DNA from: Sphingobacteriales bacterium JAD_PAG50586_3
GTDB taxonomy: Bacteria; Bacteroidota; Bacteroidia; CAMBQF01
DNA length: 64,000 bases
Direction of reading: 5' to 3'
Assembly (NCBI GenBank): GCA_023213195.1
Contig: CP096135.1
Span: 946,616-1,010,615 of the forward strand
Shown: positions 9,126 through 35,263 of the stretch, piece after piece
Position numbering within the stretch: position 1 is the first letter of the stretch
How the letters are laid out: each line of letters starts with the position of its first letter
The notes under the pieces: model-generated
Databases searched by the model: none
The model's input: only the letters and a program-made list of their open reading frames with translations
Told to the model about the DNA's origin: nothing
Translations under genes and position numbers: made by a program

Positions 9126-11228
9126 TTAATGGAGTATTATACGGCCTAAGATACCCGATAATTCTATTTTAACGTTATCTAACGTGCGTTGTTTTTCAAG
9201 CAGCGCCATTTGGTCAAACTCTTCGGTGGCAGTGGCAAGCTCATCTTGCACCTCGCGTATCATCTTTAAAATAAACTTCATTTTAAGCGAGTGCAAGGCC
9301 TTTTCTATACTTTGTTTTAGCACTACGTGCGATGTTTCTTCGGTAGCAACCTCTATGCGGTGCTTGGTGTACCAACGCTCGCTAAGGCCACTTTTTCCAT
9401 TACAAGGTCGCTGGCTACGCTCCGCACATTCGCATCGGGGTGGGCAGTAGGTTCAGGCACTTCAGGCTTTTGAATATCCAGAAAACCTTCATCATCCAAC
9501 AACACATCAGGAGTAATAAAAGGCAAGGGCAGTTCATCATCGTCAAACTCTACGGCGGGAAAGTATTGCTCTTCGGGGTGGCTTTGCAACGCAACGTAGC
9601 CGGTGTAAATGGCTTGATAAACGGGGTTTTGCATCAGCACCTCGTCGCGAGACAGTTCGTAAACTATAAAATCTCCGGCCAAAACGGTATGTACTTCTTC
9701 GTGTCGGCCATCTTCCGTTTTATGGGTAAAATAGAGTACTTTATCAGAGTGGCGCAGTAGTATGCGTATAATGTCTCGCTCCTGCCATTCGGGGTCGCTA
9801 AAGTCAACGGCTAAAAGTTCCTAGTTTTTGCCTTGTTGCTGTTGGTCGTCGTACCCTTCGCTCTCATGCTCTACAAATGCCTCTTTCAGGTGTTCGGCCT
9901 CGCGCTCTTTTTGTGTTTTAGTATAGCGTAGCTTGTTAACCTCGCGCAATAGCGTTTGCTCGTCTATGCCCGTTAAGCGGCTGCACTCTTTTATATAAAA
10001 CTGGCGTTGTATACCTTCGGGGACAATAGAAATAGTATGGGCAAGGTCTTTTACTAATGCCGCACGCTTAATTGGGTCGTTGCCAACCTCATCAATAAGC
10101 AAACTGGTTTTGAAAGAAACAAAGTCCTTAGCCGACTTACCAATATATTCTTTAAGCTCATCTATGCTTACTTTTTTGGCATACGAATCGGGGTCGTCGC
10201 CATCTGGAAAAAGCACTACGCGCACGTTCATGCCCTCTTCCAAAATCATATCTATACCACGGAAGGAGGCTTTGATACCCGCAGGGTCTCCATCGTATAA
10301 AATGGTAATGTTTTTGGTATAGCGGCTGATTAGCTTTATCTGGTCGATGGTAAGGGATGTACCCGACGATGCAACTACGTTTTCTACCCCCGCCTGGTGC
10401 ATAGATATTACATCGGTATAGCCTTCTACCAAATAGCAAACATCAAACTGGGTAATGGCTTTTTTAGCAAAATAGGCACCATAAAGCACCCGGCTTTTGT
10501 TGTAAATCTCACTCTCGGGACTGTTTACATACTTGGCCTGTGTTTTATCGGCTGAGTTTAACACTCTGCCGCCAAAGCCCAGTACACGCCCCGTTAAGCT
10601 GTGTATAGGGAACATTACACGCCCCTTAAACCTGTCGAATTTTTTATTCTCTTCTACTTTAACAATAGAAAGACCTGTTTTGGCCAAGTAGTCTAGCTTA
10701 TAACCAGCTTTAACAGCGGCATCGGTAAAAGCCGACCACTCGTTAGGGCTGTAACCCAGTTGGAATTTCTCAATTATATCATCCCTAAAGCCCCGCTCGC
10801 GGAAATAGGCTATAGCCAATAGCTTTGCCATTATCACTCTCCCAAAGTTGCTCGGTAAAATATTTTTGGGCAAAGGTGTTAACTACAAAAAGGCTCTCTT
10901 TCTCGTTCTGTTGCTCAATATCTTCGGCAGTAAGCTCCTTTTCTTCAATTTCAATATTATACTTTTTAGCAAGATAACGCAGGGCCTCGGGGTAAGTGGA
11001 GTTTTCGTGCTCCATTATAAAGTTTACCGAGTTGCCCGCTTTGCCGCAGCCAAAGCACTTGTAAATGCCTTTTGTCGGCGATACAGTAAAAGATGGGCTA
11101 CGCTCGTTATGAAAAGGGCAGTTGCCCAACATATTGACACCACGGCGCTTAAGGGCAACAAAGTCGCCAACCACCTCTTCTATACGGGCGGTTTCAATAA
11201 TGCGGTCTACGGTATCTTTAGGTATCAT
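9126..11228 (-). CDS. dnaG: DNA primase DnaG, reconstructed from four ORF fragments: two single-base frameshifts (homopolymers near 10832 and 9390) and one in-frame TAG (9821-9823)
   Basis: CHC2 zinc ribbon (CPFHNERSPSFTVSPTKGIYKCFGCGKAGN), Toprim (ILYDGDPAGIKASFRGIDMILEEGMNVRVVLFPDGDDPD) and a helical C-terminal domain ending just before the AI-2E start. Frames rejoin if AAA becomes AA at ~10832 and A5 becomes A6 at ~9390. Confidence 0.75.
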
Positions 11229-11322
11229 TGTATCTAATACAGGCGTTTTTATATAATGCGCCTATGCATCCTTTTAAAAAGGATAGCGAAGATAGCGAAA
11301 ATAGGGGTGCGGAGAGAAAAAT

Positions 11323-11523
11323 TTAAGCAGCTATTGTATGTAAAATTTGGTCCTTTAAAAGCCCGCGAAGCGATATATCTTCATCTAGCTCTTCCCACTC
11401 TATAGCAGTTTTGCCCGCATATAAACTATACTGTTTAAGTTGCTTTTCTGTGCCTTTACTTAGCAGGGGGAATTTGGAAATAGCCTCCCTTATAATTTTA
11501 CCATTATTCAATACCACAATCAT
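11323..11523 (-). CDS. DUF2442 domain protein (N-terminus uncertain: in-frame TAG at 11611-11613, with a 53-codon ORF 11614..11772 in the same frame)
   Basis: …IEITAIDFHKKQDLMIVVLNNGKIIREAISKFPLLSKGTEKQL…AIEWEELDEDISLRGLL fits the DUF2442 pattern. There is no start codon between the TAG and the ATG at 11523. Confidence 0.55.
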   Translation of the reverse strand: MIVVLNNGKIIREAISKFPLLSKGTEKQLKQYSLYAGKTAIEWEELDEDISLRGLLKDQILHTIAA

Positions 11524-11752
11524 AAGGTCTTGTTTCTTATGAAAGTCTATGGCTGTAATTTCAATATTTGAAAAATCAATTAGTTTATCAATAAACGAAT
11601 CTATCTCAGACTAGGAATTTATTGAGTCTAAAATATTTATTTGAGAACCATCTAATGCTTTGCTTTCAGACAGTTTTTTAGACTTAACAGCGCTTTGCTT
11701 TACAGGAATAAGTTTTCCGGTTTGCACCTTGCCTACTTTGGTCTTACTTGTT

Positions 11753-12016
11753 TTATTTATTGAAGTACCCATTCCATTTATTTATAATTGTTGAACGCTT
11801 CTCTTTTAAAATTTGTTCCATCAGCCTAATTTCATTGGCTTTAAAGCCTTTATTGTACTCTAATTTTAAATTTGGCACAAGCCACCATTTTGCAGTTGGA
11901 AGTTTTTCATCACCTTTAAAAACATGAACATGCGGGGGCTCGTTGTTTTCATTAGAAAAGAATCTAAACTTAAAACCTCTACTATCGTTGTCTGGCAGCG
12001 CTTTAGGCATATACAA
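11753..12016 (-). CDS. DUF4160 domain protein
   Basis: MYMPKALPDNDSRGFKFRFFSNENNEPPHVHVFKGDEKL… is the typical DUF4160 N-terminus. Classic partner of DUF2442. Confidence 0.6.
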   Translation of the reverse strand: MYMPKALPDNDSRGFKFRFFSNENNEPPHVHVFKGDEKLPTAKWWLVPNLKLEYNKGFKANEIRLMEQILKEKRSTIINKWNGYFNK

Positions 12017-12148
12017 ATGTAGACATTATTCTACAACAAATAAAGCAAAGCACCTGTTACTAACAAACGTGTTTGAGTAAAAAAATAAAAGCGTGGTTAT
12101 AAAACACAGGTTTTTATACCTTTGCCGCGTCAACCCTAAATTTATAAT

Positions 12149-13579
12149 ATGGCAAATTCGCTTAGAGCAAACCGCGAGGAGAAATTCTTTAGTGATGTTA
12201 TCAAGTATTTCGATAAAGCGGCTCAATTTCTAAACCACCCAAAAGGTATTTTAGAACAGATTAAATACTGCAACGCAGTATATCGCATTAAATTCCCTGT
12301 AAAAATTGGCGACGATTTTCAGGTAATAGAGGCTTACCGTGCAGAGCACAGCCACCACAAACTACCCACTAAAGGCGGTATCCGCTACAGTGAGCATGTT
12401 AGCCAGGACGAGGTAATGGCCCTTTCGGCCCTTATGACCTACAAATGCGCTATTGTGGATGTACCATTTGGCGGCGCTAAAGGCGGTATCAAAATCAACC
12501 CAAAAGACTACACTGTAGACCAGCTGGAACGTATTACCCGCCGCTACACTACAGAGTTAATTAAAAAGAACTTTATTGGCCCGGGCATAGACGTTCCTGC
12601 ACCTGACTATGGTAGCGGTGAGCGCGAAATGAGCTGGATTGCCGATACGTACACCACTTTTTACCCTAACGAGATTAACGGTTTGGGTTGCGTAACAGGC
12701 AAGCCTGTTGGGCAAGGTGGTATACACGGACGCCGCGAGGCTACCGGCCTTGGTGTATATTATGGCCTACGTAGCGCCATGGAAAACACCGCCGATTTGA
12801 AACGCCTTAAAATGACGCATGGCTTAGAAGGCAAGCGTATTATAGTTCAAGGCTTAGGTAACGTAGGTTACCATGCAGCCATGTTCTTACATAAAGCAGG
12901 TGCTAAAATTATTGCTATTGCTGAGTATGAAGGCGCTATTTACGATGCTAAAGGCATTGACCCAACAGCATTGCTTGAGCACCGCAAAACCACAGGTTCT
13001 ATATTAAACTTTGGCAAAGCCAAAAACATTAAGAACAGTGCCGAAGCGTTAGAGCTTGATTGCGATATCTTGGTTCCGGCAGCGTTGGAAAACCAAATAC
13101 ACAAAGGCAATGCGGCTAACATTAAAGCTAAGGTTATTGCCGAGGCCGCCAATGGACCTGTTACGCCCGAAGCGGAGATTATCCTTAACAAGAAAAACGT
13201 ATTAATCATACCTGATATTTACATGAACGCAGGTGGTGTTACGGTTTCTTATTTTGAATGGTTGAAAAACCTGTCGCACGTGCGTTTTAACCGTATGGAA
13301 AAAAAGTACGAAGAGACCATGAACAAGAACCTGCTTAGCCTTATTGAGGAGAGCACAGGCACCAAACTTAGCAAAGCGCAACGTGATTATTTAGGCCGTG
13401 GCGCTAACGAGATTGACCTTGTTTACTCTGGCTTAGATGAGACTATGACAGTGGCTTACAACGAGATTTACGAGATGTTTGCCTCTAACAAAAAAGTGCC
13501 TGATATGCGTACCGCAGCATTTATGGTTGCCATAAATAAAGTAGCTGTATCGTACCAATCACTGGGTGTATGGCCTTAG
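12149..13579 (+). CDS. gdhA: NAD(P)-dependent glutamate dehydrogenase
   Basis: 476 aa. Glu/Leu/Phe/Val dehydrogenase motifs (KGGIRYSEHVSQDEVMALSALMTYKCAIVDVPFGGAKGG) and a C-terminal Rossmann domain GLGNVG. Confidence 0.85.
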   Translation: MANSLRANREEKFFSDVIKYFDKAAQFLNHPKGILEQIKYCNAVYRIKFPVKIGDDFQVIEAYRAEHSHHKLPTKGGIRYSEHVSQDEVMALSALMTYKCAIVDVPFGGAKGGIKINPKDYTVDQLERITRRYTTELIKKNFIGPGIDVPAPDYGSGEREMSWIADTYTTFYPNEINGLGCVTGKPVGQGGIHGRREATGLGVYYGLRSAMENTADLKRLKMTHGLEGKRIIVQGLGNVGYHAAMFLHKAGAKIIAIAEYEGAIYDAKGIDPTALLEHRKTTGSILNFGKAKNIKNSAEALELDCDILVPAALENQIHKGNAANIKAKVIAEAANGPVTPEAEIILNKKNVLIIPDIYMNAGGVTVSYFEWLKNLSHVRFNRMEKKYEETMNKNLLSLIEESTGTKLSKAQRDYLGRGANEIDLVYSGLDETMTVAYNEIYEMFASNKKVPDMRTAAFMVAINKVAVSYQSLGVWP

Positions 13580-13611
13580 TCAACTAAAAACGAAAAGTGG
13601 AAAACTTACAA

Positions 13612-13645
13612 TAGAAAAATCCCGGTTTAGGCCGGGATTTTTTTA
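13612..13645. terminator. bidirectional intrinsic terminator between gdhA and tatA
   Basis: aaaaatcccggtttaggccgggattttttt. Confidence 0.6.
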
Positions 13646-13788
13646 TGTCCAAAATGAGGGTAAGTATGCTATCCTTTTAAAAAGCCCATCCCTGCGGTAA
13701 TTACTCTCTGAAAAGCAATATGGGTATTACCGCCGGGGATAGGCTACACAAAACAGGAGGGAGCATAAAGAACTATAGTATTTTCACC

Positions 13789-14004
13789 CTATGGGTTAAG
13801 GGGCGTGTTTGTTTTATCGTCAATAGTTGTTTGGGCGGGGCTGTTATTGGCCGATGCGTCTTTAAACTCTTTAACGCCTTTGCCAAGGCCTTTCATCAGT
13901 TCGGGTATTTTGCGGCCGCCAAACATAAGCAGTACTATACCCAGTATTAAGAGTATCTCTGTGGTACCAAGACCCATTATACCCAATATTGTTAAAGCTG
14001 TCAT
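13789..14004 (-). CDS. tatA: twin-arginine translocase subunit TatA/E
   Basis: 71 aa. N-terminal TM plus amphipathic helix [34 protein letters not shown]. Confidence 0.8.
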
Positions 14005-14075
14005 AGCTGTTGTATTTTACTGTTAAACTAAAAAGCCCTGCCGCGGCCATAGCAACCCGGCAGGGCATAAAACCA

Positions 14076-14912
14076 CTAAACAATAAACAAATTGGCTATG
14101 GCCAGTACTTGTGTATCGGTAAGGGGCTCATCAAAAGCCTCTTGGCAACCGGCAGCGCTTACAGTTGTAATGCTTGTAATATTAGTAATGCCACCCTGGC
14201 TAAGGTTTTGCTCACCATCGTAAACGGCTTGCGTAGGCGCAGGCAGTGTGCCGCGGCTGTTACCGGTAATCCAACCTTTAGAAGTGTCTAAACCATTTTT
14301 AGTACGCAAACGGCGTACTTCCGATGCGTGGCGTGCCTCTACAGAGTGTATTTGCAGGGCGGCGGTAAGTATGGCATCGCTACCAATTAAATTACCTGCC
14401 TGGCCTTTATATGCGCGCACACCCGTATCTTCAAACGCTTGTGCAAGGGCAAGAAAATCGCCATATAAAACAAAGGGTTGAAATGCACCACCGGCTGTAA
14501 AGTCGAATATAGGCGAGTTTACAGGGGTTCCGTTTAACGACTCTATGGTGTTGGTTAAGAAAGTTACATGGTCGTTCTCATGCTGCCTAATTTGGTTAAA
14601 CACGGCAAGGTCGGCATTGGCAATAACGCCAGATGTTACACCCATGTTATAGAATTGCGCCTCTAAATACTCCAGCGTAAGTGCAAAATTTAGCACATCT
14701 ATTACCGTTGCGGTAGAAGCGGCACCCGCTACACTTGTGGTATTAGCCTTTGCCGATGCGCCGGTAGCGGCAATTACGCCTAAAGGCAGTGCCGCGGTTA
14801 ATATAGCTTTGCCCGATTGGCCTATGCTGAAGATAGATTCGCGCCTGGTATTGGTCTGAGAAAAATCAAACTTAGTATCGCCTAATTTTTCTAAAATATT
14901 TAACATTTTCAT
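14076..14912 (-). CDS. ferritin-like domain protein (Ferritin_2/DUF4439-like) with a Tat-type signal (TRRESIFSIG)
   Basis: LEYLEAQFY… and HENDHVTFL… resemble di-iron ferritin-like helices. Paralogous to the next gene. Confidence 0.55.
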   Translation of the reverse strand: MKMLNILEKLGDTKFDFSQTNTRRESIFSIGQSGKAILTAALPLGVIAATGASAKANTTSVAGAASTATVIDVLNFALTLEYLEAQFYNMGVTSGVIANADLAVFNQIRQHENDHVTFLTNTIESLNGTPVNSPIFDFTAGGAFQPFVLYGDFLALAQAFEDTGVRAYKGQAGNLIGSDAILTAALQIHSVEARHASEVRRLRTKNGLDTSKGWITGNSRGTLPAPTQAVYDGEQNLSQGGITNITSITTVSAAGCQEAFDEPLTDTQVLAIANLFIV

Positions 14913-14931
14913 TGTGTTTTAGTTTTTAAGG

Positions 14932-15639
14932 TTAACTAGGCAAGTTGCTTGCGTTGATAGGGGTTGAAATGTAAGTACCGGCAATAGCTAGTACCTGTGC
15001 GGGTGTTTTAGCACCATCAAGGCCATTGCCATCTATAATGTCGTTACCGGCAAAGTCTGCACTCCATGGGTTTAGCAAGTCGCGTATGGCGGCAGCATGG
15101 CGTGCCTCTACCGATACTATTTTACCTGCAAGGGCAAGGTATTGAACATCGGCAATAAGCTGGCCAGCACCGTTGTATGCTGCTACACCTAAGTCTTCAA
15201 AAGCCTTGGCAGTGCCTAATACACTGGCGCGGCTGTTAAAGTCTATTGATGAAAAGTTAACGGCTAAATCGTCTTTAATACGGTTAGCCGCAGGTATGGC
15301 TGCTTTAAAGAAATCGCGGTGGGCAATTTCGTGGTTTTTAAGGTCGCCAAGAATTTGGGCTTCTTCCTGTGTCATGCCGGCAAAAGGGGTAGCCATTACC
15401 TGTATGTAAAAGGCAGCTTCCAGTTGCTCCAGCGCGTAGGCATAGTTTAGAATACCAATATCGCCACTGCCAAGGTCTTCGGCCATGGGATTGTCATCGT
15501 CATCATCGTCTTTTTTACAGCCTACACCTGCAACAAGCAAGCCTGTTGCGGCTACTGCGGCGCCTGAAAATTTCAGGAAACCAAGCCTTCCGATAGGTTG
15601 ATGGATAAAATCAACCTCGGGTGAATTTTCTTTTTTCAT
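14932..15639 (-). CDS. ferritin-like domain protein (paralog) with an Asp-rich linker
   Basis: ALEQLEAAFY… and HEIAHRDFF… Probable start MKKENSPEVDF at 15639; the track ORF extends to 15705. Confidence 0.55.
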   Translation of the reverse strand: MKKENSPEVDFIHQPIGRLGFLKFSGAAVAATGLLVAGVGCKKDDDDDDNPMAEDLGSGDIGILNYAYALEQLEAAFYIQVMATPFAGMTQEEAQILGDLKNHEIAHRDFFKAAIPAANRIKDDLAVNFSSIDFNSRASVLGTAKAFEDLGVAAYNGAGQLIADVQYLALAGKIVSVEARHAAAIRDLLNPWSADFAGNDIIDGNGLDGAKTPAQVLAIAGTYISTPINASNLPS

Positions 15640-16032
15640 GATAAATTGGGATTTAATGGTTTGTAATTCTTTTTGTTTTAGAACTAAGCTATAGTCGTAG
15701 GGCATTGTTCAATCCTTACAGATAATACCTCAATTCAGAAACATTCTATATTAAATTACAAACCGAACAAACCATTAAAATTTTGGGTTTACGCGCGTGC
15801 GGAAGCCTTGGATTGCTATTCAACCCTTGTCATTGTTGGACTTTAGCCCTTCTTATCCTGAATAAATTCTTGAAAAATTGTCCTTAAAAATCGATAATTT
15901 GATTCATTTGTAAATCAAAAAAGGATATGTGTTAACGCTGGGGCTTTTCTATCGCCGTATGCTTTGCTGATGCATTGGCATTTACTGCAATTGATAGCAA
16001 TAGGAATAAAAGGCCGATGTTTTTTTTCACTA

Positions 16033-17579
16033 TTAATCAAATTGAAATTTTACAATTTTAATCTTGGACGGTAATAAGATGTGCGAAGGGCGAAATATAT
16101 TTCCTTTTTCATCAACGCATGGGTAGTGACATTTTCTAAAAAGATTAATGACCCAATCATCCTTAGCAGGAACTATAGTTCTGGTATAATTGCCATTTTC
16201 TGCAAATGAATAAAAATAATACACGGGCTCAGACTTCTTTTTACGCGCATCTATCGGCTCAAATCCATCAAATATTAGGTTATACCCTTTGGGGCTTTTA
16301 GTAAAATATGCTCCACTTAATGAATTATCATTTGTACCAAACTCCTTACTGCTGGTAATTGATTTATCCCACCTTATGCCTTTTTCATCAACATTAATAA
16401 CAGCTATGCCACATTCTACACTTCTGTTTATAATAAATTGGTCGGGAGCATAATTATATTTAATAACACGCATATTTCCAACATTATATCGATCAGGGGT
16501 GGGCCGGGGATATTAAGATTTAGCCACGTTTTTTTAAAGAATATAGTATAGGAACTGTCTTTGTTTTCAAATATATTCTTGATTACTATATCATCTACCG
16601 TTTTAAATTTTACAGCTTTGGCTGCAAAGCTATCGTTAAAAGCATATTGTGTATTTGGGGTTATGCTTGTTGCAGTGCTAATTATATTTGTAACAAAAAA
16701 GCCATGAAATAGGGCGGGGTCTTTACTGTCTTTATAAACCCCCGCAATAACGGGCTCTCCTTTTCTATTTACGTGTAACTTTGCATTACTTAGTATTTTA
16801 TTGCCTCCCGGCTCCGTTTTAATCTCTGTAAAAACACCTTTGCTATCTATTTTATATAATAAATATTTATTGGTAATGTCGCCTGTTGTGTATGAAGCAT
16901 ATGCGTGTACTAACAAGTAGCTATTTTCTTCCTTATCAGACACAAAATCAAATATTCGTAACCCATCATAAGGTGTGGGAATTGTTATTGAAAGTGTTTT
17001 AACTACATTTAATTCCTTATCTAAATAGATAAGTTTTTCTTTTGCATTTTTATCATCCTTCTCGCCATATAAATAAACGTACGGCATATCAGGTAAACCG
17101 GTAGGCCTTATTTCGTTGCTCTCACCAAATGTATACGCCCCATATAAGTCTGTATTATCTTCTTCTATGCCTGAATTTATCAATTCTGTTTTATACGTTA
17201 GTTCCCCATTGGCTCCAATACTGAATAACCTGCTTGCACAACCTGCCGGTGCCTCTTGATAGAGCAATAAATAGGGTTGTCCGCTTAAAAGAAAAAGCCC
17301 AACAGGTACTTTCTTTATGTCCTTTCCTTTAAAGTCCTCTTGCCCATACATCTTATAAAAATCAAGTGCAAGTGTTTCAGAGTTGTACTTTTCTATACTA
17401 AACTTAATATCATACTTAGGGTGAATACGCAAAACATATACACTGCCGTTATTGTCGTATAACATGGTTTTAACTTCCCAACCTACAATATTGGGCTCGG
17501 TAGTTATACTTTCTTTAATTGTTTGGGCTTGTATAACTCCTATAAATAAACAGAATAAAAGGCTGATGTATTTTTTCAT
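16033..17579 (-). CDS. secreted protein of unknown family, paralog C (two ORF fragments, frameshift near 16430-16470)
   Basis: Signal peptide MKKYISLLFCLFIGVIQAQT. Shared motifs VYVLR, IEKYN and C-terminal …KIVKFQFD with the two upstream paralogs. Confidence 0.5.
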
Positions 17580-17587
17580 TCTCTGTT

Positions 17588-19075
17588 TTATGGTACAAAT
17601 TTAAGCAGCCTTATTTCTTTTTTGCCTCCATCGTCGCCTGCAATTCCTAGCTGCCATGGAATATAACAATTGCCTGCGCTATCGTAACAGGCACTATTAT
17701 ATCCATTTAGTAAACTATAATTATTTGCCAAATCAGGCGTGCTATCAGCAACTTTTTGACCTGTTACTTTATTGCCATTAATATTAAATAAATAATATGC
17801 GCCATAGCTTTTGTCCGATTTCTGCGACCTTGTAACAAGGTTGTATCCGCCTTTATATGGGTAAAAAATAAAGGTGTTAATGTCCATAGCAGGGTTGTTT
17901 TCGGCCGGGAGTTGATCTGTATAGGTTGATGATTCAATAGCCTCATCATTAAAAACCGTTAGGTTACTAGAGGTTGTTTGTCTCTCATAGTGCGTAGAGC
18001 TATAACTATAACTACCGGCACCGGCTATGGTGCCTTGTCGCGAATAGGTAGTTTGGTAACTATCCCTATAATAGGTTTTAAAAACAGCCGCGTATTTTCC
18101 GTTTTGTACTAATACATTTTCAACATCGCAATATCCTTTACCACCAGGGCTTTGTGCCATCGTGCCCTTAAATTCAAATATATCAGGCTCAATAATTTCA
18201 CTAACATTATCTAGTTTTTCAACAAAAAATCCCTTTACAATAAGAACACCAATAACGCGGGGCGTTTTATTTTCATCATAGAAAAAATTAATATCAGAAA
18301 CTCTATTATGATCCTCAAATTTTATTTTTACTTCTTTTAACTGTCCATCTTTAGTTATTTTGTTGAAGTAATATTCAGTGTAGTTAAAATCACCCTTTCT
18401 TGAATCCATTTTTACAACTACATAGCTTTCGCCGGTTGTATTATTTATTACACATCGCACATCTCTTACAATGTGTTGTGGCTCAGGAATATCAATTTCT
18501 TTGCTGCTTACTGTAGCAAAATCAGGACTTAAAAAGTTTACAAAAACCTTTGACTCTTTATTATTACCAAATATTTGCGCCAATACATAGGGCTGTTCTT
18601 TATTCTCTGTAAATATTAATTTATCGTGCGGAAAATCCGGCTCTTTAGCCGACTGGTTCAAATCAAAAGCCTTGTTCCAATCTCTCGATACTATTTCTTT
18701 CCGGCTTTCTTCTCCGCCTTTATCATTTAATGTAACCAGATAAAAAGTAAACGTTTTATCATCGTACTTTTTTGATAAAAGAGTAGGCCTACCATTAAGC
18801 ATATACATATCCAAATACCAATATTTAGGCTCTTTGGTTATTACAGTATATATAGGCTTAAGTGTTTCCATATTGTATTTTTCTATGGAATAGTTTAAGG
18901 CTTTACCAACCATTAAACCCCTCAATACATATACCGCCTTTTCACTTTCGTCACAAAGTACCCTTAGCACCTTGTTTTTCTTGTTACTTACTTCGCTTTC
19001 GGGGCTGGTTTCTAATGTTTGTGCTTTTAGGTTTAAAGCCAGCAAGATTAATAGCAGCAGGGTTATTCTTTTCAT
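17588..19075 (-). CDS. secreted protein of unknown family, paralog B
   Basis: Signal peptide MKRITLLLLILLALNLKAQT. VYVLRG, IEKYN and C-terminal …IRLLKFVP. Confidence 0.55.
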   Translation of the reverse strand: MKRITLLLLILLALNLKAQTLETSPESEVSNKKNKVLRVLCDESEKAVYVLRGLMVGKALNYSIEKYNMETLKPIYTVITKEPKYWYLDMYMLNGRPTLLSKKYDDKTFTFYLVTLNDKGGEESRKEIVSRDWNKAFDLNQSAKEPDFPHDKLIFTENKEQPYVLAQIFGNNKESKVFVNFLSPDFATVSSKEIDIPEPQHIVRDVRCVINNTTGESYVVVKMDSRKGDFNYTEYYFNKITKDGQLKEVKIKFEDHNRVSDINFFYDENKTPRVIGVLIVKGFFVEKLDNVSEIIEPDIFEFKGTMAQSPGGKGYCDVENVLVQNGKYAAVFKTYYRDSYQTTYSRQGTIAGAGSYSYSSTHYERQTTSSNLTVFNDEAIESSTYTDQLPAENNPAMDINTFIFYPYKGGYNLVTRSQKSDKSYGAYYLFNINGNKVTGQKVADSTPDLANNYSLLNGYNSACYDSAGNCYIPWQLGIAGDDGGKKEIRLLKFVP

Positions 19076-19105
19076 ACAGTTGCTTAAAAAGTATTACAAT
19101 GGTGG

Positions 19106-20569: not shown

Positions 20570-20599
20570 AGTTAGTTAAACATGTAAGTTATTGGGGCA

Positions 20600-20650: not shown

Positions 20651-20692
20651 TTCAACGGAAACAAGCAAGCCTTGAAATCCTTAGTATTATCT

Positions 20693-22137
20693 CTATTTAC
20701 CGCGACCTAACGAGAAAGCGTCTTTGCCATCAAAAGTGCAAAGGTTTTCTGTTTTAATAAAGTCGATACCGGCATCGGCAAGGCGGCCTAAAAGACCTGC
20801 AATTGCTTTGTGGCTGGTAGTAGAATCAGACAAGTAACGAACCACAAAATGGTCGGTGCAGAAAGTTTCTACGTTACCGCCCGGCCACACCTCGGTACCA
20901 CGGTTGGTAATTACTTTAAAGGCCAAACCATCGCCATTTAGCGGGGTTAGTTTCTCTACTAACTCAGGCGCAGTGCCGTTGTGGTGGAAGAACACATCAA
21001 CACCAACAGTTTCTTTTTACCTGCGCTTTTGCGTACCACAGGTTTAAGGTTCATTGGGGCTTTAGCAGTAGCGTAGCTAACGGCTTTAAATTTGGTAGGC
21101 TTTTGGCCAACGCGTGCAATAACAGCATCGGCAAACTCCTTAGTACCTACTTTCTCAGTAGATAAACCTTCTTTGAAGATGTCGTAAGTATGTACACCGT
21201 CTTCTAAGGTTTTTAACCATGCGTTGTGAACGTTCTCAGCAGCTTCAGTCTGGCCAATGTGTACAAGCATTTGTACAGCGCCTAACAACAGACCCGATGG
21301 GTTAGCCATATTTTGGCCAGCGCGGCGTGGGGCCGAACCGTGGATAGCCTCGAACATAGCACAGTTAGGGCCTACGTTAGCCGAACCTGCTAAACCAACA
21401 GAACCGGCAATTTGGGCGGCAATGTCAGAAATAATGTCACCGTAAAGGTTAAGCGTAACAATTACGTCGAACAACTCAGGGGTGTCGCTCATTTTGGCTG
21501 AGCCTATGTCAATAATCCAGTGTTCTTTTTCAATTTCAGGGTACTCAGCACCTATCTCGTCAAACACCTGGTGAAACATACCATCGGTTTGTTTCATGAT
21601 GTTGTCTTTAGAGAAACAGGTTACTTTTTTACGGCCGTATTGTTTAGCATATTCAAACGCGTAACGAACGATTTTTTCGCAGCCCGGGCGAGAGATTAGT
21701 TTTAAGCACTGTACAACCTCATCGGTTTGTTGGTGCTCAATACCGGCGTAGGTATCTTCCTCATTTTCACGGATGATAACCAAATCCATATTAGGGTATT
21801 TGGTATCAACATACGGGGCGTAAGCAATGCATGGGCGAATGTTAGCATACAAGCTAAGCATTTTGCGGGTTGTTACGTTTAAGCTTTTGTAGCCACCGCC
21901 TTGTGGGGTTGTAATAGGGGCTTTTAAGAATACTTTGGTACGGCGTAGGCTGTCCCAGGCTTCGGGGGCAATACCGGCAGCATTACCGCTAAGGTAAACC
22001 TGCTCACCAATTTGTATTTCTTCAATTTCAAGTTGTGCACCGGCTGCTTCCATAATGCGCAGGGTGGCATCCATAATTTCAGGACCAATACCATCGCCTT
22101 TAGCAACGGTAATAGGAGTTTTAGTTGACATATCCAA
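20693..22137 (-). CDS. icd: isocitrate dehydrogenase (isocitrate/isopropylmalate dehydrogenase family), two ORF fragments with a frameshift near 21000 (ttcttttt run)
   Basis: NLYGDIISD hallmark motif, GSAPRRAGQNMANP. The C-terminal 100 aa continue in another frame. Confidence 0.75.
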
Positions 22138-23575: not shown

Positions 23576-23618
23576 GATTTCATTGTTTTTATTGGTTTAT
23601 AATGATTTATTTGTGTGT

Positions 23619-24598: not shown

Positions 24599-24599
24599 A

Positions 24600-25391: not shown

Positions 25392-25523
25392 AAACTTAAA
25401 TTTTATGAAGCAAAAGTATAATGAGCATAGAGCCTGAATGCTCTGGTTTATAACAGTGAACGCATTGAATTAAGTTTGTAACCTAATGGTAATAAATACT
25501 TTACATAAACCCTATGGGTGAGT

Positions 25524-26630
25524 TTATAAGGTTGAACTGCTTTTCTTGAATTCTGATGGAGTTTGATTGGTCAACTTCTTAAACGTAGTATTAAAAGCTG
25601 TTTTGGAATTAAAGCCCACCTCAAAGGCTATACCCAGTATTGAATATTGATCCATTTTTGAACTAAGCAGCAGTAATTTGGCTTCCTCAATTCTGTACTT
25701 ATTAATAAAATTGAAAAAATTTAAATTGAAGCCGGAGTTAATGATGTAGGATAATTTGTGAGTAGTTGTGCCAAATAATTCCGCAAGTTTTACTAAAGTA
25801 AGCTCAGAATCAAGATAGGGCTTTTGGCTGAGCATAAATTGAGTTAATTGTGCTTTTAGGTTAACTAATTCTTCATCCGATATAATCTTCTTTTTAGCAT
25901 CACTAACTTCAATTTCATCGCTCAAGGATATAATTTCTTCAATGGCTTTTTCTTTAAAAGGGTAGATTTCCTTTTGCCTCAATGAATGAAAAGCAGTATA
26001 ATAAATTATCAGGAGGCTTAAAATATTCATAATCAGGTCTAATCGCTCCAAACTAAAAAGAATATTGTAAAAGATAACTGTTATGACTATCAAAAGAATC
26101 GCAATAATGATCCTTTTAAGCTAGGAGAGATCAATTTCCATTTTTTGAGAAGAATACATCATAACAACCTTTTGGTGCTTTCTTACTTTGTAATAAGAAG
26201 CCAGAGTATAGAAGAGTGTCTGGCTAAGCATCAAAAAAATAAGTATATAGTTAATAGTCAGGGAATTTGACTTGGCAAAGAAATAAAGTAAAATAATGTA
26301 ACCAATGGGGAGAATGAGATGTTGCGGGATTGCCTTTTTAAATTTGAAGCTTGGATTAGAATAAAATACAACGGTAAAATAAAACAGAATTGGTGTAAAG
26401 TATTGCACGCCCCTTAATAACAGTTGCCAATTTTGGTTTAGCTCTACACCGTAAACAAGAAATACTATTTCATCTACCCAGAAAAATGCCCACAGAAGAA
26501 AATATACTCCAAGCAATCGGTTAGCAATTTTGTTTACCTTAAATATATTAACCTGATTCAAAAATGAAAGCAGCATTAGTGAACCAAAGTTTAAAATCAC
26601 AAACAAAGAAGCTAATTTGTCAAATATCAT
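25524..26630 (-). CDS. AraC-family HTH transcriptional regulator with an N-terminal multi-TM sensor domain, interrupted by an in-frame TAG (26121-26123)
   Basis: C-terminal AraC HTH (…LAELFGTTTHKLSYIINSGFNLNFFNFINKYRIEEAKLLL…GFNSKTAFNTTFKKLTNQTPSEF). The upstream 169-aa TM ORF is in the same frame through the TAG. Confidence 0.5.
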
Positions 26631-26832
26631 ATTTTATTACTTTGTGTTGCCGAACTTAATTTTTTCATTACGTATCATCGGGGTGAGGCCCTACAAAGAT
26701 ATAACCCACTACCCCTTTGTCAAGAATAAGTTCCGCTCTTTATTTAAATTAAACCCTTTACCCCCTTATCTGTTTGTGGTATTGCGCTCTGGCAATTGCA
26801 CGTTGCAAATGCCTACCTTTGCACCCTATATA

Positions 26833-27563
26833 TGGCAAATAACCCACCTGTAAAACCGTACGATAACCCCAACCTTACTAAGAAAGAAGAGGTTGCCCTT
26901 ATGTTTGATACCATATCGGGCCGGTACGATTTTATGAACCGATTTTTATCCCTAGGCATTGATAAGCTGTGGCGCCTTAGGCTTCTTAAAAAACTACGCA
27001 AGCAAAATCCTGAAAATGTGTTAGATATAGCCACCGGCACTGCCGATTTGGCCATACTGGTATCTAAACACGCTAAAAACGTTATTGGGGCAGATATATC
27101 GGAAGGTATGCTGGCCGTAGGGCGAGAAAAGGTTGCCAAGCGCAAAATTACCAATGTTACCCTGCAATATGGCGATAGCGAAAACCTACCCTTTGCCGAT
27201 AATACCTTTGATGCCATTACCGTAGCCTTTGGGGTGCGTAACTACGAGAACCTTGAAAAAGGCCTTGCTGATATGCTACGTGTATTAAAGCCCGGCGGCA
27301 TGGTTTATGTATTAGAATTTTCGCGCCCGCGCAAGTTTCCTGTAAAGCAGGCATACTTTTTTACTTTAACAACGTTTTACCCCGATGGGGCAAAGTTTTG
27401 TCAAAAGACACATCGGCATACACGTATTTACCCCAATCGGTAAAAGCCTTTCCTGATGGCGAAGACTTTACGGCTATATTAGAAAAATGTGGCTTTACCG
27501 AAACTAAATTTGATTTTTTGAGTAATGGCATTGCCGCCTTGTATACGGCAGTAAAGAAATAAA
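26833..27563 (+). CDS. ubiE: demethylmenaquinone / ubiquinone C-methyltransferase UbiE/MenG, with a frameshift near 27350-27440
   Basis: SAM-MTase motif VLDIATGTADLA plus UbiE signatures. The true C-terminus (…FPDGEDFTAILEKCGFTETKFDFLSNGIAALYTAVKK*) is in another frame, ending at 27563. Confidence 0.75.
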
Positions 27564-27569
27564 TACCGT

Positions 27570-28288: not shown

Positions 28289-28316
28289 TACAAACAAATT
28301 ATTGCCCACGGCAGAC

Positions 28317-29228: not shown

Positions 29229-29312
29229 GTTATCAGCATTAATGTTGTGTAAAGCTACGTTGTTGATATAGCTACTGCAAAAACATTAAATCGTATTTAT
29301 CGGATAATGTAC

Positions 29313-29380
29313 TTTAGCCAAAGTGTAGATGCCTTGCGCTCTAAGACCATCTATCTCTCTTTAACGTTTGAATAAAAAAG
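29313..29380 (+). repeat. direct repeat copy B, followed by an intrinsic terminator (29383-29412)
   Basis: Duplicated 3' end fragment of the 27570 OMP gene (encodes …YFSQSVDALRSKTIYLSLTFE*), followed by aagcccctgtttccaggggctttt. Confidence 0.7.
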
Positions 29381-29425
29381 CCCCTGTTTCCAGGGGCTTT
29401 TGCGTAGTATCTTACTAAAAGGGTA

Positions 29426-31471
29426 TTACCACATTTTAGCGCGTTGGTCTACCGGACGGAATAGTTTATCGCCGGGTTTAATACCAAAGGCATCGTAAAA
29501 CTCACCCATATTGGTAACCACACCGTTTACACGGAATTTACCCGGAGAGTGTGGGTCGGTATACAACTGCTCACGTAAAGCCTCTGGGCGGGCATGGCCC
29601 CTCCATATTTGCGCTAACGATAAAAAGAAACGTTGGTTTGGAGTAAAACCATCTATTTTATCGTTGTTTTTGTTGTTCATTTTAAAGGCTTCAAAAGCAA
29701 TAGTACAGCCACCCAAATCGGCTATGTTTTCGCCCAAGGTAAGCTCGCCGTTAATGTGTACACTATCTAACGGAAAGTATGCGTTGTATTGGTCTACAAA
29801 CACCTTGGTAAGGGCTTTGTATTTAACGGCATCTTCAGGGCTCCACCAATCTGTAAGGTTTCCGTTGGCATCAAACTGGCGGCCTTGGTCGTCAAAACCA
29901 TGGGTAAGCTCGTGGCCTATAACCATACCTATGCCACCGTAGTTAATGGCATCATCGGCATGCTCGTTAAAGAAAGGAGGTTGCAATATAGCGGCAGGGA
30001 ACACAATCTCATTAATAGTAGGGTTGTAGTAGGCATTAACCTCTTGCGGACCCATTAACCATTCTGTTTTATCTACCGTTTTGCCCAGTTTGCTTAGGTT
30101 ACGTTTTTGCTCATTTACAAAGCCTGCCTGTAGGTTATACCACCAGTGGCCATCATTCATTTCAAGGCCTTTATACTCTAACCATTTATCAGGATAACCT
30201 ATTTTGGTTATTATTTTAGCCAGTTTTTCTTGTGCTTTTTTCTTTGTTTCGGGGCTCATCCAGGTAAGCGCGTCAATGCGTTTAGCAAGGGCGGTGCGTA
30301 GGTTCTTCACCAAATCATCAGCACGTTTTTTAGCGTTTTCAGAGAATTTCAGCTTAACATATTCTTCGCCCACAATATCGCGCATAATGTAGCTTGTGTT
30401 GTCTACAACAAACTTCCAGTGCGGCTCCATTTTTTCGCGGCCATTCATAAACTTGCCATAAAAATCAAAGCGGGCAGTAGCAAAGTTTTTGCTTAGGTAT
30501 TTAGCGTTATCGTTAACAATATGAAAGCGCAGGTATGTTTTCCAATCGGTTGCAGGAATGGTTTTTAAATATCCGTCTAAGGCTGCAAAAAACTTAGGCT
30601 GGCTTACAACCACTTGTGGGTTATTATCAGGTATGCCTGATAGTTTAAAGAACAATGCCCAGTCTAAATTTTTGTTTTGCTTAATCCAGTCGGCAGTAGC
30701 TACGGGGTTATATACCGCGTAAGGGTCGCGTTGCTCTACAAGGGTCATTTGGGCCTTGGCCAGCTTCTCGTCTACACCATAAACGGTAGCGGCATTTTTA
30801 GCAGCATCAGCCGGGGTTTGGCCTTGCAGTTCAAATATTTTTTGAATGTACTCTTTGTATTTTTTGCGGGTTTCTTCAGACTTTCCATCGGTACGGAAGT
30901 AGTAATCCCTCTCTGGCAAACCAATGCCTGCCTGGCTAAGGTATAATGTATACGTATCAGATTTTTTCAAATCCTGGTCTACATACATACCAAAAAAACC
31001 GGTGTTTGTAAGTTTAGCCATAAGGCGGGCGTTGCTTTGCGGGGTGCCAAAGCTATCTGCAGCCGCTAACCAGCCTTTAAGGGGGTTTATGCCCTCTTTT
31101 TCAACCAGGTTAGTGTCCATGGCAGAGCGGTAGTAAGCACCCAGCAGCTGGGTGTTGCTGCCTTTTTCGGCATCTTTATTTTTACCGGCATTTTCTAAAA
31201 CGGTAAGGGTAGCTTTTTGGCTTTGCTCATCAAGCTCGTAAAAAGCGCCCCACTTGCTTTTGTCGCCCGGTATGGGGTTGGCTTTAATCCATTTAGAGTT
31301 TACAAACTCAAAAAAGTCGTCGCCGGGTTTGTGGGTAGAGTCTAACAGGGCAATATCAAAAGGGTTAACTTTATCAGTGCCGGCAGTAGCCTCTTTAGGC
31401 CCGCACGATTGAAGTAATGAGCCCGCAGACAAAAAGCCTACTGCGGCTAACAGGTAAACTGTTTTTTTCAT
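29426..31471 (-). CDS. M13-family zinc metallopeptidase (neprilysin/PepO-like)
   Basis: 681 aa. VIGHELTHGFD (HExxH) and downstream ENIADLGG motifs. Signal peptide/lipoprotein N-terminus. Confidence 0.85.
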   Translation of the reverse strand: MKKTVYLLAAVGFLSAGSLLQSCGPKEATAGTDKVNPFDIALLDSTHKPGDDFFEFVNSKWIKANPIPGDKSKWGAFYELDEQSQKATLTVLENAGKNKDAEKGSNTQLLGAYYRSAMDTNLVEKEGINPLKGWLAAADSFGTPQSNARLMAKLTNTGFFGMYVDQDLKKSDTYTLYLSQAGIGLPERDYYFRTDGKSEETRKKYKEYIQKIFELQGQTPADAAKNAATVYGVDEKLAKAQMTLVEQRDPYAVYNPVATADWIKQNKNLDWALFFKLSGIPDNNPQVVVSQPKFFAALDGYLKTIPATDWKTYLRFHIVNDNAKYLSKNFATARFDFYGKFMNGREKMEPHWKFVVDNTSYIMRDIVGEEYVKLKFSENAKKRADDLVKNLRTALAKRIDALTWMSPETKKKAQEKLAKIITKIGYPDKWLEYKGLEMNDGHWWYNLQAGFVNEQKRNLSKLGKTVDKTEWLMGPQEVNAYYNPTINEIVFPAAILQPPFFNEHADDAINYGGIGMVIGHELTHGFDDQGRQFDANGNLTDWWSPEDAVKYKALTKVFVDQYNAYFPLDSVHINGELTLGENIADLGGCTIAFEAFKMNNKNNDKIDGFTPNQRFFLSLAQIWRGHARPEALREQLYTDPHSPGKFRVNGVVTNMGEFYDAFGIKPGDKLFRPVDQRAKMW

Positions 31472-31675
31472 GTGTAAAGATTGGTTAATGCAAAAGTAAC
31501 TAAGGTTTGCAAGGTTAGTATATGTATGGGGTAAATAATTACACGAAGCCTACAATGGGATAGCAGTACTTATGTGCAACAAGCAGTATTTTTAGTTAAT
31601 AACCCCAAAATACACCGCCGCTATTTATATAATCAACTGAAAATCAATATTAAAAATAAAAAAACCGCCCCACTA

Positions 31676-31714
31676 TTTGTTGTTAATAAAATTTCTCTAT
31701 CTTTGCACTCCTTA
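31676..31714 (+). promoter_or_regulatory. candidate Bacteroidetes-type promoter for rpsO (TTTG … TAtcTTTG)
   Basis: tatTTGttgttaataaaatttctcTAtcTTTGcact resembles the -33 TTTG / -7 TAnnTTTG consensus about 35 nt upstream of rpsO. Confidence 0.3.
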
Positions 31715-31748
31715 ATAAAGAAGCAAATAAACTTTTTACAGTATAAAG

Positions 31749-32018
31749 ATGTACTTAACAAGCGAAGTAAAAAAAGAAATTTTTAAACTACACGGTGAAA
31801 CAGAAACCAACACAGGTTCTTCTGAAGGTCAAATAGCCCTTTTTACACACCGCATTAACCACCTTACCGAGCATTTAAAAGCTAACCGTAAGGATTTTAA
31901 CACCCAAAGGTCTTTAATAAACCTGGTAGGTAAACGCCGCCGTTTATTAGACTATCTTAAAAATGGCGAGATTGAACGCTACAGGGCAATTATCAAAACC
32001 CTGGGCATCCGTAAATAA
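31749..32018 (+). CDS. rpsO: 30S ribosomal protein S15
   Basis: 89 aa. …GSSEGQIALFTHRINHLTEHLKANRKDFNTQRSLINLVGKRRRLLDYL…. Confidence 0.9.
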   Translation: MYLTSEVKKEIFKLHGETETNTGSSEGQIALFTHRINHLTEHLKANRKDFNTQRSLINLVGKRRRLLDYLKNGEIERYRAIIKTLGIRK

Positions 32019-32030
32019 TTCACCAAGCGA

Positions 32031-32066
32031 AAAGAGGCAATTACAATTGCCTCTTTTCGTTTTTCA
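32031..32066 (+). terminator. intrinsic terminator after rpsO
   Basis: aagaggcaattacaattgcctctt followed by ttcgttttt. Confidence 0.6.
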
Positions 32067-32092
32067 TTTAAAGTATTTTAACCAATCAGACT

Positions 32093-34324
32093 ATGTCTAA
32101 AATAGCAATTACTCAATCGTTCGATTTGGGCGATGGCCGCACAGTTACCCTTGAAACAGGTAAACTTGCCAAACAGGCAGACGGTTCAGTAGTAGTACGC
32201 ATAGGCAACACCATGTTGTTAGCCGCCGTTGTTTCTAACCAAGACCCGGTTCCCGGGGCCGATTTTATGCCCTTAACCGTTGAATATAAAGAGAAGTACG
32301 CAGCCGCCGGTGTTTTTCCGGGTGGCTTTTTTAAGCGTGAGGCCCGTCCGTCAGACTACGAAATCCTTATCTGCCGTTTAGTTGACCGCGCTTTACGTCC
32401 TCTTTTTCCTGAAGATTACCATGCTGACACACAGGTTGTTATCAACCTAATATCAGCAGAAGCAGGTGTGCTGCCCGATACTTATGCTTGTTTAGCAGCA
32501 TCGGCCGCCCTTGCCCTTTCTGATATTCCTTTTAAAGGCCCTATTTCTGAAGTTCGCGTTTGCCGTATTAATGGCGAGTTGGTATTAAACCCAACAATGG
32601 AGCAGATAGAGCAAGCCGATATTGATATGATGGTTGCCGCCACTATGGAAAACGTAGTGATGATTGAAGGCGAAATGAAAGAAGTTGCAGAAGCTGATAT
32701 GATGTCGGCTATTGGCTTTGGACACGAAGCTATCAAACGCCAGCTTACCGCTATCAACGCGTTGGTTGAGGCTGCCGGTGGTAAAAAACCTGCCCGCGTT
32801 TACAACCACGAAACTAACGACGAAGACTTACGTGCCGCTGTTAAAGCCGCTACGTACGATAAAGTATATGCTGTTGCCAAAGCCGGTAACCCTAAAAAAG
32901 ACGACCGTAAGGCCGCTTTTAAAGCCGTATTGGAAGAGTACAAAGCTACTTTTAGCGAAGAAGAATTGGCTGAGAAAATTGGCCTGATTAAAAAATACTA
33001 CCACGAGGTGGAATGGCAAGCCGTTCGCGACGTGATATTGAATGAGCGTATCCGTTTAGACGGTCGTAAAACAGACGAAATACGTAACATTTGGAGCGAG
33101 GTTGATTACCTTCCAAGTGCCCACGGTTCGGCTATCTTTACCCGTGGCGATACACAATCTCTTACCACTGTTACCCTGGGTAACAAAATGGATGAGCAAC
33201 TTATTGATGGCGCCATTATTAAAGGCACTGCTAAATTCCTTTTACATTACAACTTCCCTGCATACTCTACAGGTGAGGCCCGCATGAACCGCGGTACCAG
33301 CCGCCGCGAGGTAGGCCACGGTAACCTTGCGTTACGTGCTTTGAAAAACATGATTCCTTCTGCTCCTGAAAATCCTTACACTATCCGTATAGTGTCTGAT
33401 ATTCTTGAGTCTAACGGTTCATCATCTATGGCTACGGTTTGCGCCGGTACACTTGCTTTGATGGATGCCGGTATACAAATTAAACGTCCGGTATCAGGCA
33501 TTGCCATGGGCTTAATTACTGATGGTACAGGCAAATTTGCTGTACTATCTGATATTCTGGGTGATGAAGACCACTTAGGAGATATGGACTTTAAAGTAAC
33601 GGGTACCGAAAATGGTATTACCGCTTGCCAAATGGACATTAAAGTAGATGGTTTAACGGCTGAAATTATGACACAAGCCCTAGACCAGGCCCGTGCAGGC
33701 CGCTTACACATACTTGGCGAAATTGCTAAGACTATGTCTGCGCCTAATGCTGATTACAAACCACACGCACCGCGTATTGTTGAATTCCGCATTCCACGCG
33801 AATACATTGGCGCCGTTATTGGTTCTGGTGGCAAGGTTATTCAGGAAATGCAACGCGAAACTAACACCATCATCACTATTGAAGAGGTTGGACAAGAAGG
33901 TATCATCCAGATATCATCAGCCAACAAAAATGATATTGATGCAGCGTTAGACCGTATTAAGAATATTATTACTGAGCCTGAAGTTGGTACAATATATACC
34001 GGCAAAGTTAAAACAATACAGCCCTTTGGTGCGTTTGTTGAAATACTACCGGGTAAAGACGGCTTACTCCACATTTCAGAAATTAAATGGGAGCGTTTAG
34101 AAACGATGGATGGTGTGCTGAATGAAGGTGATGTGATTGAGGTTAAATTAATTGGCCTTGACCCTAAAACCGGTAAATTAAAACTATCACGTAAGGTTCT
34201 TTTAGACAAGCCGGAAGGTTATGTTGAGCCTGAACCACGCGAGCGCCGCGAAGGTGGCGACCGTGGCCCACGCCGCGATTTTAAAGGCGGCGGCCGTGAT
34301 AACCGTGGCCCGCGCCGCGACTAA
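32093..34324 (+). CDS. pnp: polyribonucleotide nucleotidyltransferase (PNPase)
   Basis: 743 aa. Two RNase PH domains, KH and S1, and an RGG-rich C-terminal tail. Confidence 0.9.
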
Positions 34325-34399
34325 CATTGCTTTATTATTAGTGTAACAAATAGATACAACTATCGTATAAAAGCCCCTTATATATAAGGGTGTTTGCCT

Positions 34400-35263
34400 A
34401 TGAGACAGTTAAAGATTACAAAACAGGTTACAAATCGCGAAACCGCCTCTCTTGATAAGTATTTACAAGAGATTGGTAAGGTAGAGCTTATCAACGCCGA
34501 AGAGGAAGTTGAGTTAGCGCGCCGTATACGCTAGGGCGACCAGGCGGCACTGGAAAAGCTAACCAAAGCCAACCTTCGTTTCGTTGTGTCGGTATCTAAA
34601 CAATACCAAAACCAGGGCCTTAGCCTGCCCGACTTAATTAACGAGGGTAACCTGGGTTTGATTAAAGCTGCGCAACGTTTTGATGAAACACGTGGTTTTA
34701 AATTCATTTCGTACGCCGTATGGTGGATTCGCCAGTCAATTCTTCAGGCGTTAGCAGAGCAGTCTCGTATTGTTCGTTTACCACTGAACAAAATTGGTTC
34801 TATCAATAAAATCAACAAGGCTTTTTCTAAGCTGGAGCAAGAGTATGAGCGCGAACCAACCGCCGAAGAAATTGCCCAAATCTTGGAAATGACCGAGAAT
34901 GATGTTAAGGAGTCTATTAAAAACTCGGGCCGCCATATTTCTATGGATGCGCCGCTGGTTCAAGGCGAAGAGAGCAACATGTACGATGTACTACGCAGCT
35001 CTGATAGCCCAAGCCCTGAGAGTGGTTTAATTAACGACTCTTTACGTAAAGAGATAGAGCGCGCATTGTCTACACTAACTCCCCGCGAGGCTGATGTTAT
35101 TAAATTATACTTCGGCTTAAACGGTGAGCATGCCATGACATTGGAAGAGATAGGTGAGAAGTTTGACCTTACACGCGAGCGTGTACGCCAGATTAAAGAA
35201 AAAGCGATTCGTCGCTTAAAACACACATCACGTAGCAAAATCCTAAAAACATACCTTGGATAA
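34400..35263 (+). CDS. rpoD: RNA polymerase primary sigma factor (sigma-70 family, short Bacteroidetes SigA type), with an in-frame TAG at 34532-34534 (codon 45)
   Basis: [53 protein letters not shown]… continues in frame into regions 2, 3 and 4 ([12 protein letters not shown], …[15 protein letters not shown]…TLEEIG…). Confidence 0.8.

Follow-up and report, generated by a model that had tools for sequence, protein, structure and literature searches.

Consensus sequences from nanopore reads carry systematic errors. Considering R9.4 data, about 70% of the consensus errors lay in CCAGG/CCTGG motifs and came from Dcm methylation, and homopolymer-length errors were next in number (Wick et al. 2019, PMC6591954). 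Methylation-induced nanopore errors were found to be mostly A/G or C/T ambiguities, of which only some become assembly errors (Lohde et al. 2024, PMC11610573), and modification-induced errors are strand-specific (PMC11610603). Here, we analyzed a stretch of 64,000 nucleotides from Sphingobacteriales bacterium JAD_PAG50586_3 (contig CP096135.1, positions 946,616 to 1,010,615; this whole stretch is called the window below). Within it, four genes, including those for the primary sigma factor (rpoD) and the primase (dnaG), are interrupted by in-frame TAG codons. Very probably, to judge from the sequences compared below, these four TAGs are base-calling or consensus errors in an unpolished nanopore assembly and not codons of the living bacterium. 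We are dealing almost certainly with an artefact of an already known error type, not with new biology.

The likeness to the Dcm-motif errors of R9.4 assemblies (PMC6591954) is close. In both cases, native DNA was read with R9.4-type pores, the substitutions are confined to CCWGG, homopolymer-length errors accompany them, and the errors are systematic, hence surviving high coverage. The differences are that the source is here an uncultivated member of the Bacteroidota (order AKYH767) and not an enterobacterium, that a later base-caller (Guppy 5.1.15) was used, that a minority of the CCWGG sites is affected, and that we infer the methylation of CCWGG. The ambiguities described in PMC11610573 and with Hammerhead (PMC11610603) are also C/T or G/A transitions at or next to the modified base, and only some of them flip the consensus. 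However, those strand-specific errors were obtained with R10.4.1 chemistry and at other motifs, whereas the present case concerns R9.4.1, CCWGG, and a consensus sequence only.

In-frame TAGs in otherwise intact genes are also typical of TAG recoding (suppressor tRNAs, TAG-to-Gln phages, and pyrrolysine). TAG-to-Gln recoding, for example, occurs in some phages of Bacteroidota. Unlike in these systems, TAG is a normal terminator in the window, the ancestral residues appear to be both Gln and Trp, a tRNA-CUA was not found in the window, and what the sites have in common is a DNA motif, not a translational context. The amber hotspots at 5-methylcytosine (5mC) in lacI of Escherichia coli reportedly look the same: according to Coulondre and Miller (Coulondre et al. 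1978), CCAGG turns into CTAGG as the product of deamination, so that CAG becomes TAG. There the DNA itself had mutated. Here, by contrast, the change is most likely one of the base call only, since the genes concerned are essential and indel errors are present in the same sequence.

In-frame TAG codons and the pentamer they share

The four TAGs are located at 34532-34534 (+) in rpoD, at 9821-9823 (-) in dnaG, at 26121-26123 (-) in a gene for an AraC-like regulator, and at 11611-11613 (-) in a gene with a DUF2442 domain, and each of them breaks a continuous reading frame (table 1). A preliminary description of the window had placed them at codon 45 of rpoD, in the linker of dnaG, inside an AraC-family membrane regulator, and in the N-terminus of the DUF2442 gene. 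Its positions were exact, and sequence and translation confirmed that a continuous frame is interrupted at each. The rpoD codon is part of a gene of 287 codons. In DnaG, the Pfam domains DNAG_N, Toprim, and DnaB_bind are all encoded upstream of the TAG, so that it interrupts the linker that follows the Toprim and DnaB-binding domains. In the AraC-like gene, the TAG separates a 169-aa membrane part from a 198-aa part with HTH_18; the Pfam matches HTH_18 and HTH_AraC both fall in the C-terminal part, downstream of the TAG, and single homologous proteins bridge the two halves. In the DUF2442 gene, the TAG is codon 54 of 149. Downstream of this TAG, no ATG, GTG, or TTG precedes the point where similarity to the single homologue begins, and thus the frame must run through the TAG to reach the conserved domain.

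The whole window was scanned for all stops with at least 45 stop-free codons on either side in the same frame. The output was long, and clearly positive coding scores on both sides were found at 9821, 11611, and 34532 only; no TAA or TGA in the window qualified. The coding scores at 26121 were negative (-1.2 and -4.3), which is consistent with atypical codon usage. This site was kept because its flanking stop-free runs have 170 and 198 codons and because full-length homologues extend across the TAG. A TAA at 9126 was rejected as an internal stop, since it belongs to an ordinary gene junction (a stop, then ATG). The routes by which one substitution leads to a stop in the long open reading frames (ORFs) of the window number 2,025 for TAA, 1,578 for TAG, and 668 for TGA, so that random substitutions would give TAA more often than TAG. 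Moreover, TAG terminates 11 of the 40 stop-free runs of at least 200 codons, including gdhA at 13577-13579. The preliminary description had named gdhA as a gene ending in an ordinary TAG and had rejected a global reassignment of TAG, and with these counts the rejection holds.

All four TAGs are inside CTAGG or, on the opposite strand, CCTAG, which is a single C-to-T/G-to-A transition away from CCWGG. The window has 1,868 TAG triplets, of which only 42 (2.2%) are in this context, and the probability of finding it at four of four sites is p = 2.6e-7. Of all the single-base changes that would create a stop, 0.46% affect the inner C of CCWGG, and the share is 7.7% among the transitions that would create TAG; a mutational null based on these shares gave p between 5e-10 and 3.5e-5 for the four sites. 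CTAGG differs from CCAGG at the very cytosine that Dcm-type enzymes methylate. The strand on which the pentamer is read predicts the residue lost. Where the gene strand has C-TAG-G (rpoD and dnaG), the true codon would be CAG (Gln), and where it has CC-TAG (the AraC-like and DUF2442 genes), it would be TGG (Trp). The preliminary description had overlooked this common context and had derived the TAGs from CAG, GAG, or AAG; CAG is the likely source in the first two genes, and in the other two its list gives way to TGG.

Relatives were compared at the affected positions. A reference of the same species was not found: the best match in a GTDB scan with the PNPase had 87% amino acid identity (L001). 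Relatives in protein databases reached 90-97% identity, and the closest long contig (L085) had 89.5% DNA identity over pnp-rpoD and 74-83% elsewhere. The rpoD gene of the window matches the 287-aa RpoD proteins encoded next to pnp in relatives. Of 54 such pnp-adjoining relatives, 43 have Gln at position 45, 10 have Glu, and 1 has Ala. Four of them (L081, L082, L083, and L085) read CGC-CAG-GGC, that is, CCAGG, at this site, and L001 has CAG too, but in a TCAGG context. The 21-mer of L081 differs from the window at the TAG base only, and the RpoD of L085 is identical to that of the window in 286 of 287 positions, the sole difference being the stop codon. For the AraC-like gene, an exhaustive homologue search yielded proteins of about 365 aa that span both halves in one stretch, and Trp occupies the TAG column in 70 of 71 aligned homologues. 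Since Trp has one codon only, the original codon would be TGG. Judged from these homologues, the residue predicted from the strand is the one present at rpoD and at the AraC-like gene, the two sites where the prediction was testable.

The interrupted frames have entered the databases. The DnaG fragment that ends at the TAG (9824-10873) was deposited as UPT68103.1 (336 aa, "toprim domain-containing protein", 100% identical), and the N-terminal fragment of the AraC-like protein (26124-26630) as UPT68122.1 (169 aa, "hypothetical protein M0D57_05540", 100% identical). In the searched collection, each of the two is its own representative in a single-member cluster at 90% identity. The PNPase of the window corresponds to UPT68127.1 (exact match). 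All three proteins come from a contig of 4,155,772 bp of Sphingobacteriales bacterium JAD_PAG50586_3, and these exact matches tie the window to CP096135.1.

Table 1.— Affected genes, pentamers with in-frame TAG, and frameshifts in the window; original codons are the probable ones.
Feature	Position	Strand	Basis or remark
rpoD, primary sigma factor, 287 codons, otherwise intact	34400..35263	+	Sigma70 regions 2, 3, and 4 (Pfam)
CTAGG with TAG at rpoD codon 45	34531..34535	+	probable original CCAGG, CAG (Gln)
dnaG, primase	9129..11228	-	broken by TAG and two 1-nt frameshifts
CTAGG on gene strand (CCTAG on +)	9820..9824	-	TAG 9821-9823; probable original CCAGG, CAG (Gln)
dnaG 1-nt frameshift between zinc ribbon and catalytic core	~10787-10882	-	Zn_ribbon_DnaG and DNAG_N/Toprim in different frames
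dnaG 1-nt frameshift, C-terminus, T5/A5 run	9392-9396	-	junction of frames and comparison with P0122
Membrane-anchored AraC-family regulator, 368 codons, otherwise intact	25524..26630	-	Pfam and full-length homologues
CTAGG on + (CCTAG on gene strand), AraC-like gene	26121..26125	+	TAG 26121-26123; probable original CCTGG, TGG (Trp)
DUF2442-domain gene, 149 codons, Lys-rich N-terminal extension	11323..11772	-	Pfam DUF2442 and ORF
CTAGG on + (CCTAG on gene strand), DUF2442 gene	11611..11615	+	TAG 11611-11613, codon 54; probable original TGG (Trp)
AI-2E transporter, 1-nt indel in C4 run (G4 on +, 8184-8187)	8181..8187	-	TAG brought into frame, truncation
Isocitrate dehydrogenase (icd), 1-nt frameshift near A5 run	20961..21025	-	Iso_dh and Isocitrate_DH_C_bact in different frames
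TPR gene, frameshift	36679..36772	-	intact 561-aa L085 orthologue aligns in two frames
BamA-like Omp85-family gene, frameshift between POTRA repeats and Omp85 barrel	60438..60656	+	domains in different frames
Glutamate racemase (murI), frameshift at A7 run	63222..63228	+	Asp_Glu_race profile over two frames

Probable consensus errors at CCWGG and the rival explanations

According to its genome announcement (PMC9583780), CP096135.1 is a metagenome-assembled genome (MAG) obtained from a Lake Zurich amoeba culture that was not axenic. The reads came from a PromethION R9.4.1 flow cell, Guppy 5.1.15 served for base-calling and Flye 2.9 for assembly, the coverage was 115x, and polishing is not among the steps described. 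The reported 4,869 coding sequences (CDS) in 4.16 Mb and the CheckM completeness of 94.9% for a closed circle (PMC9583780) are consistent with widespread gene splitting. This published provenance, an R9.4.1 Flye assembly for which no polishing was reported, settles the question. Among the options of the preliminary description, base-call error stood, while an amber-suppressor background and programmed readthrough found no support.

Homopolymer-length errors occur in the same assembly, in A5, A7, and C4 runs of dnaG, murI, icd, and the AI-2E gene. Because the window shows both published error classes, motif substitutions and homopolymer indels, we read the TAGs as base-calling errors at CCWGG. 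This reading rests on the association with the motif, on the ancestral bases shown for two of the sites, on the way in which the genome was sequenced, and on the indels that accompany the TAGs. Furthermore, murI, the BamA-like Omp85 gene, dnaG, and icd are all frameshifted, so that the deposited sequence cannot be that of a living cell; the proteins hit by frameshifts are otherwise well conserved. The proposed course of events is as follows. A minority of the CCWGG sites would be affected: there, the inner C on the strand with CCAGG would be called T, giving CTAGG or, on the other strand, CCTAG, and an amber codon would arise if CAG or TGG within the motif is in frame. Modification of the cytosine at CCWGG (5mC, possibly N4-methylcytosine, 4mC), which would shift the pore signal, is the most likely cause. 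The 1-nt indels in dnaG, murI, icd, and the Omp85, TPR, and AI-2E genes would form a second error class of the same chemistry.

Several observations weigh against this explanation. The TAGs of dnaG and of the DUF2442 gene are in unconserved stretches. The DnaG linker is variable, with Arg at the TAG site of the nearest homologue (P0122, 77% identity); closer relatives were not obtained from the metagenome scan, where no DnaG exceeded 69% identity. The sole homologue of the DUF2442 protein begins approximately at the TAG position and has Asn there. Moreover, 71 CCWGG sites are intact in the window, one of them 9 bp from the TAG of rpoD. In about 32 of the intact sites, CAG or TGG is read as a codon, which means that only about 1 in 9 susceptible sites (~11%) was changed. 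Purines flank the pentamer at all four TAG sites and at 15 of the 71 intact CCWGG sites, and this is the sole further regularity. When the window was compared with relatives over about 5 kb, the loss of CCWGG stood at 19 against 16, without a general excess in the window, and natural divergence swamps any directional signal of CCWGG loss in a comparison of this length; none of the PNPase substitutions unique to the window was derived from CCWGG. The long ORFs of the window contained no motif of a C5 or an N4/N6 DNA methyltransferase. Later models of Oxford Nanopore Technologies (ONT) cope well with CCWGG methylation of the E. coli type, as was shown for R10.4.1, and a literature search found no statement of the exact C-to-T direction of miscalls at CCWGG for Guppy 5.

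Some of these observations would be expected if the base-caller and the Flye consensus were simply weak at k-mers like CCAGG, with no base modification involved. The missing methyltransferase motif and the low share of changed sites would favor such an origin, and the purine flanks suggest a dependence on a wider k-mer. On the other side, CCWGG is the classic bacterial 5mC motif, and methylation is the documented reason for its dominance among R9.4 substitution errors (PMC6591954), whereas at 115x, most substitution errors with an origin other than modification should cancel out. We therefore consider k-mer context without modification unlikely, although it is the strongest competitor, and modification, rather than k-mer context alone, remains the most likely cause of the miscalls.

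Real C-to-T mutations, produced by deamination of 5mC at CCWGG in the sequenced population, would have the right chemistry, since all four changes are of the type CCAGG to CTAGG. However, it would be lethal if the genes for the primary sigma factor and the primase carried amber codons that are fixed at 115x, and the RpoD identical to that of a relative in 286 of 287 positions implies strong purifying selection. Deamination also cannot produce the frameshifts of murI, the Omp85 gene, and icd. Mutation is thus a very improbable source of these TAGs.

The remaining alternatives are weaker still, and suppression, reassignment of TAG, and real gene decay are effectively excluded. If the TAGs were real and read by an amber-suppressor tRNA, by partial reassignment, as pyrrolysine, or by programmed readthrough, it would be fitting that all four in-frame stops are TAG. 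Yet the residue found in homologues is Gln in RpoD and Trp in the AraC-like protein, and a single suppressor tRNA would not supply the two; many ordinary genes of the window terminate in TAG; and the 64-kb window contains no tRNA with a CUA anticodon, the only tRNAs found being tRNA-Leu(taa) and tRNA-Gly(gcc). Suppression would also leave both the strict CCWGG-derived context (p about 3e-7) and the frameshifts unexplained, and it deserves hardly any credence. The same holds for genome decay, by which the broken genes would be real pseudogenes of a bacterium associated with amoebae; in its favor, one could cite the source of the MAG in a non-axenic amoeba culture (PMC9583780) and the many broken genes in the window. 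Against it, rpoD, dnaG, murI, and the Omp85 gene are among the broken genes, yet their sequences are highly conserved; the qualifying in-frame stops are TAG only and from a single motif, without the mixed spectrum of nonsense codons; several indels are in homopolymers; and the authors of the announcement infer a fast-growing free-living heterotroph (PMC9583780). Finally, ambers at CCWGG that arose by real deamination and are tolerated because another part of the genome encodes an amber-suppressor tRNA have only the slightest probability, and would mean a natural uncultivated member of the Bacteroidota living with suppressed ambers in rpoD and dnaG.

Other frameshifts and the composition of the window

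Frameshifts outside the four TAG genes were also examined (table 1). In the AI-2E gene, the neighboring frame carries the conserved C-terminus on as APLEIFIVILAAGTLGGVVGMMVAIPTY, and the Pfam AI-2E profile ends at position 290 of 327. The TAG at 8181-8183 has the CCTAG context; we rejected it as a substitution error, as it is the product of the indel in the adjacent C4 run. The context CCTAG/CTAGG alone is thus no proof of a substitution error. The junction in the Omp85 gene, near 60590-60600, is outside any homopolymer, which means that not all indels of the window are of the homopolymer type. This junction, GAGCGCTTGG, seems to be one base too long; relatives would presumably encode ...SFTE-P-WLGG there.

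Further candidates for frameshifts are ubiE/menG (27272-27441), BamA (57926-58942), and the intervals 58969-59245 and 16430-16512. Candidates at 43.4-44.5 kb and 46.0-47.2 kb were rejected as ordinary overlapping gene pairs, which are separate in L085 too, and one at 38.2-38.6 kb because it aligned in one frame. A 264-aa gene without a family match (45144-45938), located between a CAP-domain gene and a DUF3037/HipA_2 pair, is absent at the corresponding place in L085 (20390-21343).

The pentamers are unevenly distributed. Distinct CTAGG and CCWGG sites stand at 17:36 in positions 1-37400 of the window and at 4:35 in 37400-64000 (Fisher p = 0.02), and for the whole window the ratio is 24:71, compared with 12:94 in the loci of relatives (p = 0.016). 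The excess of CTAGG in 1-37400 could reflect hidden C-to-T errors there, or chance. Purine-flanked CTAGG also occurs at 17649, 28385, 45425, and 54684. If these were errors, they would be changes of Pro to Leu or of Gly to Ser, examples of such putative missense being YIPWQ-L-GIAGD and, in PorG, TLADP-S-LGTVP. The Leu codons at CTAGG in UbiE/MenG (LSLGID) and in the Rossmann motif of an SDR protein (GINGLLG) look native if compared with what we take to be the motifs of these families. For this reason many CTAGG sites are likely to be genuine, which leaves the overall rate of errors at CCWGG uncertain.

Three palindromes are strongly depleted in the window, with GATC observed 15 times against about 236 expected, TCGA 31 times, and CTAG 43 times, whereas GGCC is enriched approximately twofold. 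The closest relatives (L085, L084, L081, and L001) share the same skew in GATC, TCGA, CTAG, and GGCC. It is therefore a property of the lineage and not an assembly error, and the depletion may have arisen through restriction pressure.

Significance

The TAGs themselves have no biological significance, and their value is that of a warning and of a diagnostic signature. Products of the false stops, UPT68103.1 and UPT68122.1, already pollute the databases as separate proteins in NCBI nr, and split genes have probably raised the count of 4,869 CDS. Where in-frame TAGs accumulate in CTAGG/CCTAG and frameshifts occur in homopolymers, this combination is a cheap diagnostic that flags unpolished nanopore assemblies and shows which base has to be restored. 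As for the organism, an uncultivated member of AKYH767, the pattern hints at a modification of cytosine at CCWGG.

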